Virus record (IMG/VR): IMGVR_UViG_2579778784_000011 | From: a virus | Taxonomy: Duplodnaviria; Heunggongvirae; Uroviricota; Caudoviricetes | Strand: one strand, 5' to 3' | Length of the DNA stretch: 4,393 bases | Part shown: positions 1 through 4,393 of the stretch, piece after piece | Numbering within the stretch: the stretch's first letter is position 1 | Layout: every line of letters begins with the position of its first letter | Program-made: the position numbers and the translations under genes | The notes under the pieces: model-generated | The model's database searches: none | The model's input: the letters and a program-made list of their open reading frames with translations, nothing else | Told to the model about the DNA's origin: nothing

Positions 1-1734
1 GCACGCAACGCTGAAGCCGCCTCTCAGAGCGCAGCGGCAGCAAAGAAATCAGAAACAGCAGCGGCATCGTCCAGGAATGCGGCGAAAACATCAGAGACGA
101 ATGCAGGTAACAGCGCGAAAGCGGCAGCTTCTTCAAAAACAGCCGCACAAAACGCAGCAACAGCGGCAGAACGTTCAGAGACAAATGCCCGTGCGTCAGA
201 AGAAGCCTCCGCAGACAGTGAAGAGGCTTCCCGCCGTAATGCAGAGTCAGCCGCTGAAAATGCCGGAGTCGCCACCACAAAAGCGCGGGAGGCCGCAGCA
301 GACGCAACAAAGGCCGGGCAGAAAAAGGATGAGGCTCTGTCGGCAGCGACACGGGCTGAAAAGGCGGCAGACCGCGCAGAAGTCGCAGCGGAAGTGACTG
401 CAGAGCCCTATGCGAATATAGTGCCGCCGCTGCCTGATGTGTGGATACCGTTTAACGATTCACTGGATATGATTGCGGGTTTTTCTCCGGGCTATAAAAA
501 AATAGCTATTGGTGACGATGTGGTTCAGGTCGCCAGTGATAAACAGGTTAATTTCAGTCGCGCATCAACGGCAACATATATCAACAAATCTGGCGAACTG
601 AAAACGGCGGAAATTAATGAGCCGCGATTTGAGTGTGATGGCCTGCTTATTGAGGGACAAAGAACGAACTACATGCTCAATTCGGAAAGTCCAGCCAGCT
701 GGGGGAAGTCATCAAACATGGATGTGCCCGAAACCGGGACGGATAGTTTTGGTTTTACTTATGGAAAGTTTGTCTGCAACGATTCTCTGGTTGGGCAAAC
801 TTCGGCTATTAATATGGCATCAATTGCTGCAACAAAGTCAGTTGATGTCTCAGGCGATAACAAGTACGTGACAACCTCATGCCGTTTTAAAACAGAACGA
901 CAGGTAAGGTTACGTATACGGTTTGATAAGTATGATGGTAGTGCAACAACTTTTCTTGGCGATGCGTACATTGATACGCAAACGCTTGAAATTAATATGA
1001 CAGGTGGTGCTGCCGGCAGAATTACGGCACGAGTCAGGAAGGATAAGACCACAGGCTGGATTTTTGCAGAGGCAACGATTCAGGCAATTGATGGTGAGTT
1101 AAAAATAGGCTCTCAGATACAGTATTCTCCTGAGCAGGGTGGGGCAACAGTATCTGGTGACTATATTTATCTTGCCACCCCACAAGTAGAGAATGGGCCG
1201 TGTGTATCATCATTTATTATTTCAGGAGGCAGCGCAACGACAAGAGCCAGTGATTTGGTTAGTATCCCCACCAGAAATAATCTTTATAAGTTACCATTTA
1301 CTTTTTTACTTGAGATTCATAAAAACTGGGATATTGCACCAAACGCCGCACCCCGCGTGTGGGATATAGCAGCAGCCAATACCGGGCAATTAGCAATTGC
1401 AGCAATCAACAGAGGTAGTGGTAAGTTATATATGAGTCTGTCAAACCCTTCAGGCTCGTATGTTAATAGCGCAGCGACAGATGTATTTGCAGAGAAAACC
1501 ACATTTGGATGTATTGCAAAAGCTGATGGTCACTTTCATGTGGTGACAAATGGTAAAGCGGTTAATGAAGTTTATTGTGAATATAATGGCGTGACCGCTG
1601 ATAAAAATATCCGATTTGGAGGGCAGACGAATACTGGAGAACGACATCTGTTTGGCCATATTCGCAATTTCCGCATATGGCATAAAGAAAAGCAATTGCA
1701 GCAATCAACAGAGGTAGTGGTAAGTTATATATGA
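1..1734 (+). CDS. side tail fibre protein (Stf-like), 5'-partial at window edge; 3' end frameshifted by a tandem duplication
   Basis: Frame 1 is open from nt 1 with no stop until 1732-1734, so the gene enters the window in progress and the GTG at 394 in the ORF track is internal. The first ~130 codons are an Ala/Ser/Thr/Glu/Lys-rich low-complexity shaft (e.g. AAKTSETNAGNSAKAAASSKTAAQNAATAAERSETNARASEEA), as in lambdoid Stf-type side tail fibres. A less GC-rich C-terminal region follows. The last 14 codons before the stop lie in copy 2 of the 299-bp duplication and are read out of phase. Confidence 0.8.
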   Translation, partial: ARNAEAASQSAAAAKKSETAAASSRNAAKTSETNAGNSAKAAASSKTAAQNAATAAERSETNARASEEASADSEEASRRNAESAAENAGVATTKAREAAADATKAGQKKDEALSAATRAEKAADRAEVAAEVTAEPYANIVPPLPDVWIPFNDSLDMIAGFSPGYKKIAIGDDVVQVASDKQVNFSRASTATYINKSGELKTAEINEPRFECDGLLIEGQRTNYMLNSESPASWGKSSNMDVPETGTDSFGFTYGKFVCNDSLVGQTSAINMASIAATKSVDVSGDNKYVTTSCRFKTERQVRLRIRFDKYDGSATTFLGDAYIDTQTLEINMTGGAAGRITARVRKDKTTGWIFAEATIQAIDGELKIGSQIQYSPEQGGATVSGDYIYLATPQVENGPCVSSFIISGGSATTRASDLVSIPTRNNLYKLPFTFLLEIHKNWDIAPNAAPRVWDIAAANTGQLAIAAINRGSGKLYMSLSNPSGSYVNSAATDVFAEKTTFGCIAKADGHFHVVTNGKAVNEVYCEYNGVTADKNIRFGGQTNTGERHLFGHIRNFRIWHKEKQLQQSTEVVVSYI

Positions 1735-1989
1735 GTCTGTCAAACCCTTCAGGCTCGTATGTTAATAGCGCAGCGACAGATGTATTTGCAGAGAAAACCA
1801 CATTTGGATGTATTGCAAAAGCTGATGGTCACTTTCATGTGGTGACAAATGGTAAAGCGGTTAATGAAGTTTATTGTGAATATAATGGCGTGACCGCTGA
1901 TAAAAATATCCGATTTGGAGGGCAGACGAATACTGGAGAACGACATCTGTTTGGCCATATTCGCAATTTCCGCATATGGCATAAAGAAT
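1392..1989. repeat. perfect direct tandem duplication, 2 x 299 bp (unit 1392-1689, junction base A at 1690, copy 1691-1988)
   Basis: Base-by-base comparison: 1392-1689 is identical to 1691-1988 over 298 bp. The first difference is 1690 (A) versus 1989 (T). Confidence 0.97.
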
Positions 1990-2021
1990 TAAATGACAGG
2001 CAATTAAAAGAGGTCGTATGA
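1731..2021 (+). CDS. displaced tail fibre C-terminal fragment (copy 2 of the duplicated segment in the native phase); likely remnant, not an independent gene
   Basis: Encodes the same 85 residues as copy 1 (MSLSNPSGSY...FRIWHKE), then LNDRQLKEVV and a TGA that overlaps the next ATG (ATGA at 2018-2021). This looks like the original end of the tail fibre gene. Its own ATG overlaps the upstream stop (ATGA at 1731-1734), so reinitiation is possible. Confidence 0.4.
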   Translation: MSLSNPSGSYVNSAATDVFAEKTTFGCIAKADGHFHVVTNGKAVNEVYCEYNGVTADKNIRFGGQTNTGERHLFGHIRNFRIWHKELNDRQLKEVV

Positions 2022-2296
2022 AAGATTTAACTTTGAAGTTTCATGACAAACTGCAGTTTAAGGCCTTCCTGTCATCTCTTGGCTGGGCGGAAGATGAAGA
2101 CCTCCAGAATAAACTGTTAGTTGATGAAATTGGTTTCACCTACACAGAAACAGGGGTAACAGAAGAGGGAGAACCTGTCTGTATCCGGAATGATGGTTAT
2201 TTTGTCAACATTCGCATTCTTGATGACTTGTTTGATGTTTCTGTATTCTCTGATTATGTCGTGGAGCTGGAAACACCGCTTCGGGAATGGAGCTGA
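2018..2296 (+). CDS. hypothetical small acidic protein (92 aa), translationally coupled to the tail fibre gene
   Basis: ATG at 2018 overlaps the native-phase tail fibre stop (ATGA), with AAGAGG a few nt upstream. 92 aa, strongly acidic (about 20 Asp/Glu versus 8 Lys/Arg). No motif recognised. Its 3' two-thirds lies inside the 271-bp duplication. Confidence 0.6.
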   Translation: MKDLTLKFHDKLQFKAFLSSLGWAEDEDLQNKLLVDEIGFTYTETGVTEEGEPVCIRNDGYFVNIRILDDLFDVSVFSDYVVELETPLREWS

Positions 2297-2618
2297 AAGG
2301 AGGAAATAATGGATATAAGCCCCTTACTTCATGCACTTTGTGCTGTATCTTGGCTGGGCGGAAGATGAAGACCTCCAGAATAAACTGTTAGTTGATGAAA
2401 TTGGTTTCACCTACACAGAAACAGGGGTAACAGAAGAGGGAGAACCTGTCTGTATCCGGAATGATGGTTATTTTGTCAACATTCGCATTCTTGATGACTT
2501 GTTTGATGTTTCTGTATTCTCTGATTATGTCGTGGAGCTGGAAACACCGCTTCGGGAATGGAGCTGAAAGGAGGAAATAATGGATATAAGCCCCTTACTT
2601 CATGCACTTTGTGCTGTG
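2077..2618. repeat. perfect direct tandem duplication, 2 x 271 bp (unit 2077-2346, junction base A at 2347, copy 2348-2617)
   Basis: Base-by-base comparison: 2077-2346 is identical to 2348-2617 over 270 bp. Position 2347 is A where the base after copy 2 (2618) is G. Confidence 0.97.
2331..2567 (+). CDS. chimeric duplicate ORF created by the 271-bp duplication; probably not an independent gene
   Basis: MHFVLY, from the start region of the downstream gene, is fused in frame to residues 21-92 of the 2018-2296 product. No Shine-Dalgarno precedes its ATG. The strong RBS+ATG at 2297-2311 instead opens a 19-codon ORF ending at 2363-2365. Confidence 0.3.
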   Translation: MHFVLYLGWAEDEDLQNKLLVDEIGFTYTETGVTEEGEPVCIRNDGYFVNIRILDDLFDVSVFSDYVVELETPLREWS

Positions 2619-2868
2619 GCTGCGCAGATACTGGTTGGTCTTTTTTACCGGAAACTGGGCTTACGGAGCGATAGCCGGTTGTACGTTCTTCATTGCGCGT
2701 GAACATACCCAGGCAGAATATCGCTGGATTGAAATGTTCGGGCATGGCAAGCGAATGAATATGCCGTGGTGGGGCGGTTTTGATCCGCGTGCTTGGGATG
2801 TGGCAAGCCTGATGGATTTTGCTGTGCCGGTGGTGGCGTGTCTGCTGATCTGGATGTTGATCCGTTAA
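2602..2868 (+). CDS. hypothetical small membrane protein (88 aa, two predicted transmembrane segments); start uncertain
   Basis: Open frame with enterobacterial-like codon choice (CTG, GTG, CCG, GCG frequent). Two hydrophobic stretches long enough to span a membrane (WLVFFTGNWAYGAIAGCTFFIA and VASLMDFAVPVVACLLIWMLI), with Arg-Arg before the first. No Shine-Dalgarno before ATG 2602; a strong AAGGAGG-N5-ATG lies at 2568-2582 in a different frame. Confidence 0.55.
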   Translation: MHFVLWLRRYWLVFFTGNWAYGAIAGCTFFIAREHTQAEYRWIEMFGHGKRMNMPWWGGFDPRAWDVASLMDFAVPVVACLLIWMLIR

Positions 2869-2919
2869 ATATAAAAAGTAAAAAGCCGCAGTAACTTGTC
2901 ATGATAGGATACTGCGGCT
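2869..2919 (-). terminator. candidate intrinsic terminator for dinI (hairpin plus U-tract on the minus strand), possibly bidirectional
   Basis: Inverted repeat AGCCGCAGTA (2884-2893) / TACTGCGGCT (2910-2919): a 10-bp stem with a 16-nt loop. On the minus strand the stem is followed by UUUUACUUUUUAUAU (complement of 2869-2883), about 65 nt past the dinI stop. The loop is long for a canonical terminator. Confidence 0.45.
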
Positions 2920-2985
2920 GGCTGGTTAACTTTCGATAGTGCGAGTATTGAATGATTTCCAGCCGTTACTGATTTTACGTGCTAA

Positions 2986-3234
2986 TTAGTGAACAAACCA
3001 CTCGTCAGCAGACTCCCAGGTATCTTTCAGAGTTTCCTGAACAAAAGTTTTAGCTGAATCTTTATCGGCGGTGCGCGTAACAGAAAGGCCATCGTTGCTG
3101 GTGGCTTTTACGATCACCTCTACATCGTCATAACGTTTACTGATGCGTCGGGTTAATTCTTCCTTTAACGCATCCACAGCACCGTTTGGCATTTTAGTCA
3201 TTTTTTCTTTGGCTATGCAGATCTCAATACGCAT
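2986..3234 (-). CDS. dinI: DinI-family DNA-damage-inducible protein (82 aa)
   Basis: The translation [82 protein letters not shown] matches my memory of E. coli DinI at many positions (MRIE..IAK, GA.DAL, EL.RRI, LSV, QET, TWESAD.WFV). It is preceded by an AGAGGG Shine-Dalgarno and two LexA boxes. Not verified by search. Confidence 0.9.
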
Positions 3235-3249
3235 AAAAGTCCCTCTATA

Positions 3250-3265
3250 CTGTGTTTGTATACAG
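3250..3265 (-). promoter_or_regulatory. LexA box (SOS operator), promoter-proximal, overlapping the likely transcription start of dinI
   Basis: CTGTGTTTGTATACAG on the + strand matches the CTGT-N8-ACAG core of the enterobacterial LexA consensus TACTGTATATATATACAGTA, with flanking TA...TG. It lies 16-31 nt upstream of the dinI ATG. Confidence 0.75.
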
Positions 3266-3270
3266 TGTTA

Positions 3271-3299
3271 TTTTTAACTGTATGGATAAACAGTGTCAA
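3271..3299 (-). promoter_or_regulatory. candidate sigma70 promoter of dinI (-35 TTGACA at 3294-3299, -10 TAAAAA/AAAAAT near 3270-3276, minus-strand sense)
   Basis: Minus-strand sequence is cTTGACA-ctgtttatccatacagt-TAAAAAt: a perfect -35 hexamer, a 17-18 bp spacer and an A/T-rich -10 (4/6 match to TATAAT). The -35 hexamer overlaps the integrase stop codon (3296-3298). Confidence 0.5.
3278..3293 (-). promoter_or_regulatory. second LexA box, occupying the -35/-10 spacer of the dinI promoter
   Basis: CTGTATGGATAAACAG (CTGT-N8-ACAG), 12 bp from the first box and directly abutting the TTGACA -35 element. Confidence 0.75.
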
Positions 3300-4393
3300 G
3301 AGGTCTTATTTCTGCTCCTTTGGAGCTCTTCAAAACGATTATGTAAAGATTTCGGATACAGTTCGGTATATACCTGCCATAGCACGTTTAATGAACGATG
3401 CCCTGTAACCTGAGCGACTTCCTCAATACTAAAACCAGCCTCAAATAAGCGACTTGCCCCTTCTCTACGCAAATCATGGTATCGCAGATCTTTAATACCT
3501 AATTTGCTTCTTACCCTCTGAAATCCTGCAGTAACAGAAGTGCTGTTATATGGAAAAATGAATTCCGATTTTTTGGGCTGTCGTTGGACGATATCCCAGG
3601 CTTCCCCAAGCAAGGCTACTTTCATGTGGTTGCCTTCCTTTTTGCGTGGATCTTTCCTGTCTCTTACGAGTATAGATTTTTGTTCCTGGTCGAGATCTTC
3701 CCATCGTAACCGGCATACTTCTCCGATCCGCATACAGGACCACACAGAAAATTTGAGGATATCAACGAACGGAATTTTTGAGCATTTATGAGTAGATCGT
3801 TGTTGAAGGCCTTCAATGAGCATGTCCAGTTCATCAGATGCTGGTCTACGATTACGACGGTTTGATTTACCAATCAAACCAAGTTTAAGTAGATATGGGC
3901 GAGCGCTTTTCGCCGGGTTTGATGTGTAATTAATTCCGTATACAGGTTTGGCCGCATCCAGAACACTGCCAAGATAACTAACATCGTGGCTGACTGTTGC
4001 TGGACCTGCACCAGCGTTGTTTCTTAGCCTGCAATGTTCAATTACGTCATTTTCTGTCAGTTCAGATAGTTTGATCGCGGAGATGTCACTATCCATAAGC
4101 AGTTCCAGCACATATCTTTTAGTACGGCCTGCTTTACCTCCGGCATTTGGGTCATTTAAATATTTGTGTAGTAAGTCACGGACTGTAAGTCCGTCAACTG
4201 CATTTGATGATGGAATGCCATATAGATCTAATTCCATCACTTTCTGTGTTCCCCATGTTTTGGCATGAGCATGTTTAGGGAATGTTTTGCTTTCCCTGTA
4301 AGTGATAACACCTTTTTCTTTGATAATCACATTACAGCGATAGCGTGGTGTGCCATCGGATTTTAGTCGTTTCTCTATGTTATAGTACGCCAT
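3296..4393 (-). CDS. int: phage integrase, tyrosine recombinase family (365 aa); ATG at window edge, apparently complete
   Basis: C-terminal catalytic-domain signature in order: Arg in MRIGEVCRLRWEDL, Lys in KKEGNHMKVAL, HDLRREGASRL (His-x-x-Arg), GHRSLNVLWQVYTEL (His/Trp and the presumptive catalytic Tyr). Size is typical of lambda-like integrases, and it sits next to a tail module and a moron region. Start codon is at 4391-4393; an upstream extension beyond the window cannot be excluded. Confidence 0.9.
   Translation of the reverse strand: MAYYNIEKRLKSDGTPRYRCNVIIKEKGVITYRESKTFPKHAHAKTWGTQKVMELDLYGIPSSNAVDGLTVRDLLHKYLNDPNAGGKAGRTKRYVLELLMDSDISAIKLSELTENDVIEHCRLRNNAGAGPATVSHDVSYLGSVLDAAKPVYGINYTSNPAKSARPYLLKLGLIGKSNRRNRRPASDELDMLIEGLQQRSTHKCSKIPFVDILKFSVWSCMRIGEVCRLRWEDLDQEQKSILVRDRKDPRKKEGNHMKVALLGEAWDIVQRQPKKSEFIFPYNSTSVTAGFQRVRSKLGIKDLRYHDLRREGASRLFEAGFSIEEVAQVTGHRSLNVLWQVYTELYPKSLHNRFEELQRSRNKTS

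Follow-up and report, generated by a model that had tools for sequence, protein, structure and literature searches.

Integration module and dinI-adjacent spacer in an mEp460-like lambdoid phage

The DNA analyzed here, a stretch of 4393 nucleotides that we call the window, comes in our estimation (probability about 0.8) from an mEp460-like lambdoid phage, where it forms the right end of the late region, and the integrase of this phage is a tyrosine recombinase of the DusA-associated type. According to this reading, attP lies upstream of int, and the 117-bp ORF-free spacer at 2869–2985 is the 3′ flank and terminator of dinI, with no recombination site. An earlier note on the same DNA had proposed this spacer as the best candidate for attP. 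We have compared the window with phage records, with integrated prophages and with 5426 complete Escherichia coli genomes, and describe below the junctions at which the phage group integrates, the hairpins of the spacer, and the functions that these hairpins may have.

Gene content and boundaries of the window

The left part of the window holds the 3′ two-thirds of a side tail-fibre gene (+ strand, ending at 2021), followed on the same strand by an ORF of 92 amino acids (2018–2296) and by a small membrane-protein ORF (2580–2868) that is frameshifted in the window. The spacer was correctly described in the earlier note as non-coding: there is no ORF between the end of the membrane ORF (2602–2868, + strand) and the start of the dinI interval at 2986. 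dinI (2986–3234, − strand) encodes 82 amino acids of the DinI-like family (Pfam DinI, E = 1.2e-19). Its promoter region contains two LexA-box-like sites, CTG-N10-CAG, at 3250–3265 and 3278–3293, and a predicted promoter-like site with a −35 hexamer TTGACA at 3299–3294 and a −10 element ending at 3270. The int gene (3296–4393, − strand; PF00589, E = 1.1e-20) encodes a tyrosine recombinase of the DusA-associated type. Its start (ATG) is at the last base of the window, 4393, and its stop codon (TGA, 3296–3298) overlaps the predicted −35 hexamer of dinI.

Escherichia phage mEp460 (mEp460_4F5, LR595868.1) has an identical gene order and is 99.3% identical across the window when both of the window's duplications are removed. 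It differs in lacking two tandem duplications (299 and 271 bp) and one additional T, which the window alone has. Both duplications are perfect (1392–1689/1691–1988 and 2077–2346/2348–2617), and neither length is divisible by 3; the 299-bp duplication splits the tail-fibre ORF into 394–1734 and 1731–2021, and the 271-bp duplication makes a second copy of the last part of the 92-aa ORF and of the beginning of the membrane ORF. The additional T makes a run of six at 2641–2646, compared with five in mEp460, and the 95-aa membrane ORF is frameshifted there into 2580–2702 and 2602–2868. The duplications and the extra T are absent from mEp460 and from every complete E. coli genome checked; all close relatives have 3822 bp over the region that measures 4393 bp in the window, and the best E. 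coli matches at the junction region come in three pieces. Judged from these alignments, the tandem duplications suggest an assembly artefact or a very recent event, and the extra T looks like a homopolymer sequencing error.

Two boundaries in the window are revealed by comparison with other phages. The first is a mosaic junction at 2859–2868: many phage records match window 1–2859 only, and this tail-fibre/moron module is common to phages 21, Perceval, ev017 and 4A7, with divergence beyond it. In PhiR55_1, PhiR47_1 and phiSTEC1575-Stx2k the match starts at 2567–2682 and runs to 4393. The other is the boundary of the att/int cassette at 3299–3302, up to which relatives that integrate in prfC share the window (1–3302) and after which they have an att arm of their own. 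This end of homology almost coincides with the end of int that encodes the C-terminus, so the integrase cassette was fused to the dinI module only a few bases from there.

attP, dusA junctions and the spacer

The tail-fibre ORF and int are convergent and 1274 nt apart, as the earlier note had observed, with 271 nt of this distance due to the tandem duplication unique to the window. From this gene order it had deduced a circular or packaged, non-integrated form of the phage. However, the identical tail fibre–dinI–int order is present in integrated prophages of complete E. coli chromosomes, with host genes on both sides (zur on one and dusA-pspG-qorA on the other), an arrangement that the note itself had regarded as incompatible with its proposal. 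The entire window is contiguous in eight complete E. coli chromosomes. In the three that were examined (C25, PG20180057 and LH85-a), the order is J-lom-stf-ORF-ORF-dinI-int, then 88 bp from the int ATG, and then the divergent dusA-pspG-qorA; in strain C25 the opposite end of the prophage adjoins zur. The int and tail-fibre genes are therefore at the same end of the integrated prophage. Strain C25 is without yjbL-yjbM between zur and dusA.

Upstream of int, mEp460 carries 104 nt with 82% identity to the 5′ end of K-12 dusA (9908–10011 in the mEp460 locus, L001). The earlier note had suggested a search for integrated copies and their attL and attR; prophages were found at dusA, and both junctions were aligned in C25. 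A four-way alignment of attP, attR, attL and attB gave the common core ATGCTTGA, at L001 10007–10014. The phage attP reads ...GCATTGCTCCT ATGCTTGA TAGGATGTACCG, attR of C25 reads ...GCATTGCTCCT ATGCTTGA CTGGACGGACAG, attL of C25 reads ...CGATTGCCCCG ATGCTTGA TAGGATGTACCG, and attB of K-12 reads ...GCGTTGCACCA ATGCTCGA CTGGACGGACAG. The native dusA start is retained at attL of C25, with phage DNA after it. Matches to the att region were found in 905 of the 5426 complete genomes, the int-side match ending at L001 10011–10014, over integrase/dusA, and one 43.7-kb circular record contains an uninterrupted attP.

By homology with mEp460, the attP region of the window's phage is located immediately beyond 4393, with GGGAACC-type repeats at +21 to +55; the start codon of the surrogate dusA is at +89, and ATGCTTGA, the core, occupies +185 to +192, equivalent to window positions 4578–4585. 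attP is thus outside the window, and its position is inferred from relatives with 99.3% identity. Of the two places for attP considered in the earlier note, the fallback, upstream of int past nucleotide 4393, is the one that these data bear out. Its broader statement, that attP should be in or next to the window, holds as far as 'next to' is concerned (185–192 nt past the end), and fails both in the ground given for it and for a position inside the spacer. The mEp460 core has five GGGAACC/GGGAGCC/GGTTCCC repeats around it; the int side has three of them, and the opposite side has two (L001 9843, 9859, 9871, 10058 and 10069; spans 9843–9877 and 10058–10075). These repeats are candidate arm-type binding sites of the dusA-specific integrase.

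Compared at the sequence level, the integration module of the window is that of the DusA-associated integrase (DAI) system, which is already known, the family having been defined by Farrugia et al. (2015; PMC4482086). The features of a DAI module that we find are a tyrosine recombinase of the phage integrase family, int beside the dusA 5′ end with the island DNA on the 3′ side of int, a replacement dusA 5′ end brought by the element while the original 5′ end stays at the other junction, and, at each of the two junctions, semi-conserved direct repeats some 100 nt inside dusA, as seen in the four-way alignment. The site matches the Citrobacter rodentium attB quoted in PMC6328086, and Int is 52–56% identical to integrases of Salinivibrio, Vibrio, Shewanella and Klebsiella phages. 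Elements of this type insert about 100 nt into the host dusA, with int adjoining and divergent from dusA, and supply a surrogate dusA 5′ end. This places attP upstream of int and leaves int beside dinI and the tail-fibre genes once the prophage has formed. The slot beside attL of C25 (L003 7184–8172) holds a Panacea-domain gene and a small ORF, and mEp460 has a different ORF of 177 amino acids there; by this comparison it is a variable cargo site.

The closest precedent is the lambdoid phage 1720a-02 (Phi-stx2dact, KF030445.1), for which experiments showed integration 100 bp into dusA, a 7-base core, a need for Int in regenerating attP, and a 'noncanonical' gene orientation (PMC6328086). Its Int is identical to that of the window in 364 of 365 positions, and its core is at the same dusA site as that of the window's phage group. 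Both 1720a-02 and the DAI elements resemble the window's phage in having int beside and divergent from dusA, a surrogate 5′ end, semi-conserved att repeats, a short core, and a non-canonical order with int beside the tail end; nothing essential differs. By analogy with 1720a-02 and its near-identical Int, Int-dependent excision and integration at dusA would be expected for the window's phage. Homology of 1720a-02 with the window is limited to 2988–4393, with other DNA in place of 1–2987, the spacer included.

Phages lambda and HK97 resemble the window's phage in the succession of late genes, b-region or morons, and then the int region, and both have the conserved segment of the spacer. However, attP is 3′ of int in those phages, so that int and the tail genes come to lie at opposite ends of the prophage, whereas the 5′ position of attP relative to int in the window's phage keeps int with the tail genes. 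In the prfC-integrating relatives the att arm is directly to the right of dinI: it is phage-specific, contains a surrogate prfC 5′ end, and begins at about window-equivalent 3300, which is the start of the int module. This establishes the att/int cassette boundary to the right of dinI and assigns the spacer to the dinI module. In one such relative (NZ_CP134718.1, L012 8181–8375, compared with K-12 L180 4415–4460), the insertion is in the 5′ end of prfC, and the element brings a prfC start of its own as surrogate, with identity to the host regained at 46 nt into prfC, a replacement of a gene 5′ end as at dusA.

Spelled out in full, the proposal of 2869–2985 as attP has the inverted repeat and the A/T-rich flank as core and arm region, in a circular or packaged phage. 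The earlier note's description of the spacer was largely accurate. The 10-bp inverted repeat is exact (AGCCGCAGTA at 2884–2893 and TACTGCGGCT at 2910–2919), and no tRNA-derived segment had been seen by eye; our tRNA search of the window was negative too, which disposes of a tRNA-derived att site. Of the A/T-rich flanks, only the left one is so (2869–2883, 7% G+C); the right one (2920–2985) has 41% G+C, compared with 45% for the whole window. The analogy with lambda and HK97 favors the proposal, all the more as the homologous segment in HK97 is next to sib and about 190 bp from the attP core, and so does a 9-nt match: TGATAGGAT (2902–2910), in the loop of the inverted repeat, equals the first 9 nt on the phage (P′) side of the attP crossover (L001 10012–10020). 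This match is, however, at chance level (E = 0.13) and is not kept in the sister variant L012A.

Against it stand the gene order within integrated prophages flanked by host genes and the junctions found elsewhere in 905 genomes. Neither the core (ATGCTTGA or ATGCTCGA) with dusA-like surroundings nor any GGGARCC-type arm repeat was found in the window. In the integrated prophages the spacer is intact and internal, about 1.5 kb from the dusA junction, so its sequence is not divided over the prophage ends. Co-variation with the integrase is required of an attP, and the spacer lacks it: phages with at least five other integration sites carry it, and 1720a-02, whose Int is 99.5% identical, does not. 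The integration sites of spacer-bearing phages include the lambda site (HK97), the phi80 site, the site of Stx2 phage 1717, ydfJ (Qin), prfC and dusA. The spacer is thus not an att site, and the proposal has next to no probability left.

Structure and distribution of the spacer

The inverted repeat forms hairpin 1 (H1, 2884–2919), with a perfect 10-bp stem (2884–2893/2910–2919), a 16-nt loop and equal stability on both strands. It is the only perfect inverted repeat in the window with at least 10 bp and a loop of 3–20 nt; shuffled windows have a mean of 0.087, and only 20 of 300 have any. Hairpin 2 (H2) spans 2920–2964 and is favored on the + strand, with an outer stem GGCTGG/CCAGCC (2920–2925/2959–2964), an inner stem TTCGATA/TATTGAA (2932–2938/2946–2952) and the loop GTGCGAG. 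The region folds far better than shuffled sequences, with z values of −3.8 on the − strand and −4.7 on the + strand, and none of 200 shuffles is as good.

The comparison took in 28 variants, which come from Escherichia, Shigella, Citrobacter, Salmonella, Trabulsiella and Pantoea, and was followed by a structure-guided covariance model that recovers 107 copies in 100 loci. Compensatory double changes are found in 21 of the 32 modelled pairs (174 cells), a number that none of 500 column shuffles reaches, and the signal collapses when the partners are slid by 1–3 columns; the alignment was fitted to the model, and these compensatory counts therefore lean towards it. RNAalifold on a plain MAFFT alignment, in which the arms are misaligned by indels, did not recover H1. 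In the covariance alignment, 12 of the 13 modelled H1 pairs and 9 of the 19 H2 pairs have compensatory changes. H1 is formed in all 28 variants (−12 to −27 kcal/mol on the + strand), with stems that differ in sequence and keep their pairing, such as CCGCAG/CTGCGG, CCGCCGC/GCGGCGG and GCTGCAG/CTGCAG; the H1 loop in the window differs from that of most copies. H2 is a 19-bp stem with four or five G·U pairs in Citrobacter, Salmonella and Trabulsiella variants, and in 27 of the 28 variants it is more stable on the + strand (composition-controlled z of −3.4 versus −2.0).

The right two-thirds of the spacer (2912–2978) is conserved across lambdoid phages with 80–96% identity. It matches lambda at 24190–24256, between ea47 and ea31, and HK97 at 20974–21041, abutting sib, and is also present in phi80, in many Stx phages and in one Salmonella phage. 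The spacer element exists in 5386 of the 5426 E. coli genomes, its copies including one at the end of the cryptic prophage Qin and one in the ykgJ-ecpE intergenic region of K-12. The latter is 91% identical over 2910–2985; a dinI pseudogene remnant adjoins it, and a tfa remnant is not far off. In MG1655 this stretch (304202–304345, locus L182; L010 2961–3100) comprises the hairpin module and a degraded dinI 3′ end, CTAATTCGTGATTAAACCACTCGTTAG, and an IS009/tfa-like remnant is on the other side of ykgJ; in its make-up the ykgJ-ecpE region looks like the relic of a prophage end. Among the 92 distinct copies with enough flanking sequence, a DinI-family gene directly follows on the right in 41, always on the − strand and convergent. 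The generic ORF context around the copies, convergent or not, was not decisive.

Two copies of the module bracket a cassette at some loci. In lambda they lie on either side of ea47 (L005 869–968 and 2458–2582), and in the prfC prophage of NZ_CP134718.1 (L012 4993–5115 and 7748–7872) they enclose an ATP-dependent nuclease gene and a small ORF. Further loci (L015, L020, L071, L081 and L108) likewise show another, weaker copy at a distance of about 1 kb. Such bracketing fits terminators that insulate morons, and could also reflect a linker for recombination. No Rfam family matched the window at an E value of 1 or less, and we found no prior description of the element in the literature.

Candidate functions of the hairpins

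The spacer is an ordinary, if unusually conserved, intergenic module of the terminator type belonging to dinI. H1 is located 66 nt past the dinI stop codon, and on the same (−) strand its 10-bp stem has −16.1 kcal/mol and is followed immediately by a proposed U-tract, UUUUACUUUUUAUAU (2883 to 2869, 7% G+C). This is the layout of an intrinsic terminator, and H1 and this T-run most likely constitute the terminator, or a stable 3′ end, of leftward dinI transcription. The leftward transcripts would cross H2 and stop at H1 and the U-tract, with a predicted RNA 3′ end at about 2875–2880, and such a stop would shield the convergent tail-fibre and moron genes from SOS-induced read-through of dinI; H1 may be bidirectional and serve rightward transcripts as well. 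Intrinsic terminators between convergent genes, which are often bidirectional, likewise have a G+C-rich stem and then a U-tract past a stop codon. The window differs from typical ones in its unusually long loop of 16 nt, and in the second conserved and strand-biased hairpin alongside. A simple terminator pattern scan reported nothing at the spacer because its loop limit was 8 nt. The T-run is not kept specifically with dinI: the A-run 5′ of H1 is as common where the gene is missing as where it is present (4.7 vs 5.5 A in 11 nt).

An RNA end has been mapped at a homologue of H1 in K-12. Term-seq data (Adams et al. 2021, PMC7815308, supplementary files 1 and 3) contain an 'orphan' 3′ end at 304212/304213 on the − strand, with about 95,000 reads at 304212 and about 88,000–99,000 over the tabs that list it. 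It is outside the Rho termination regions, and its intrinsic score of 2.78 is just under the cut-off of 3.0. This end maps 7 nt after the homologous H1 of the ykgJ-ecpE copy, inside the counterpart of the U-tract and upstream of ykgJ, and the RNA that ends there is a very abundant, unannotated − strand transcript (PMC7815308); its 3′ end could be a processed or trimmed one. From this homologue we infer termination in the window's phage.

The + strand bias of H2 is not accounted for by a dinI terminator and suggests an RNA function in late or moron transcripts. The functional molecule might then be mainly a + strand RNA, beside or instead of dinI termination: the 3′ end of a late/moron transcript, a CssrB-like small RNA ending at H1, or an RNase III-type processing hairpin (H2). 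Several observations agree with this. The G·U pairs of H2, four or five in several genera, turn into C·A mismatches on the − strand; the + strand is the more stable in 27 of 28 variants, also with composition controlled; and in lambda an H1-like stem with a U-rich tail comes directly after tfa. Moreover, the Shigella small RNA CssrB (Rfam RF02799), detected by Northern blot at about 180 nt, ends on the + strand in an H1-like stem, and its 3′-terminal hairpin aligns with the common form of H1, as shown on HK97. However, the likeness is confined to that terminal hairpin, scores 29.1 bits in HK97 against a gathering threshold of 76 and gives no match in the window, and the CssrB 3′ end was set by prediction rather than by mapping. 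There is also no canonical U-tract directly past H1 or H2 on the + strand in the window, and the one 3′ end that has been mapped in a homologue belongs to the − strand. We regard a mainly + strand RNA as possible, with the odds leaning against it. The published probe AATCCCGCAGTGATCGCGGAGCT for the EPEC small RNA PasB, which is near tail genes, does not match the element.

A more far-reaching version is that the H1–H2 module is a distinct, uncatalogued structured element of about 100 nt in enterobacterial lambdoid prophages, with H2 acting as + strand RNA and the copies marking slots of cassette exchange. Copies of the module exist in several genera and in >99% of E. coli genomes, and Rfam lists no family for it. 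H2 may then be a processing or stability signal at the end of late/moron transcripts, or may take part in antisense interplay with the dinI 3′ UTR, and repeated copies may mark slots for the exchange of defence or moron cassettes next to the prophage end. We put this forward tentatively, as something rather improbable in its entirety. The copies might instead act as DNA, as a conserved linker through which lambdoid phages exchange modules and gain morons by homologous recombination. The mosaic junctions at the edges of the element (2859–2868 and about 2912) and the paired copies around ea47 and the nuclease cassette are as this would predict. However, the compensatory changes keep the pairing and not the sequence, which argues for selection on structure, and repeated terminators would bracket cassettes passively; we consider a linker unlikely.

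In every chromosome examined, RefSeq/PGAP annotates a 'capsid protein' pseudogene over 2908–2988 (L002 14338–14418), and many copies share the translated motif RRMQERAAAGW(R)(T)FDSASIE. The element might on these grounds be the decayed 3′ end of a protein gene or encode a micro-peptide (MQERAAAGW...). Against this, none of about 90 copies has a long or conserved upstream ORF, the position of the stop varies (9 aa, 18 aa or more), and the window has no ATG and contains in-frame stops. Moreover, third codon positions of the core do not vary between genera, and the 5′ arm alters amino acids freely with the pairing kept. A coding origin is very improbable, and by these features the pseudogene annotation is probably spurious.

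The integration biology at dusA is already documented. What the present comparison means for this phage group is that int beside the tail genes is an unreliable sign of an excised phage, because integrases with attP upstream of int, such as the dusA type, keep this order in the prophage. Prophage boundaries and attP sites called by analogy with lambda would be wrong for the common dusA-type group of E. coli phages, whose att region is found in 905 of 5426 complete genomes. Recognizing the hairpin module as a terminator or RNA element would clean up its annotation and would give a handle on how morons are insulated.
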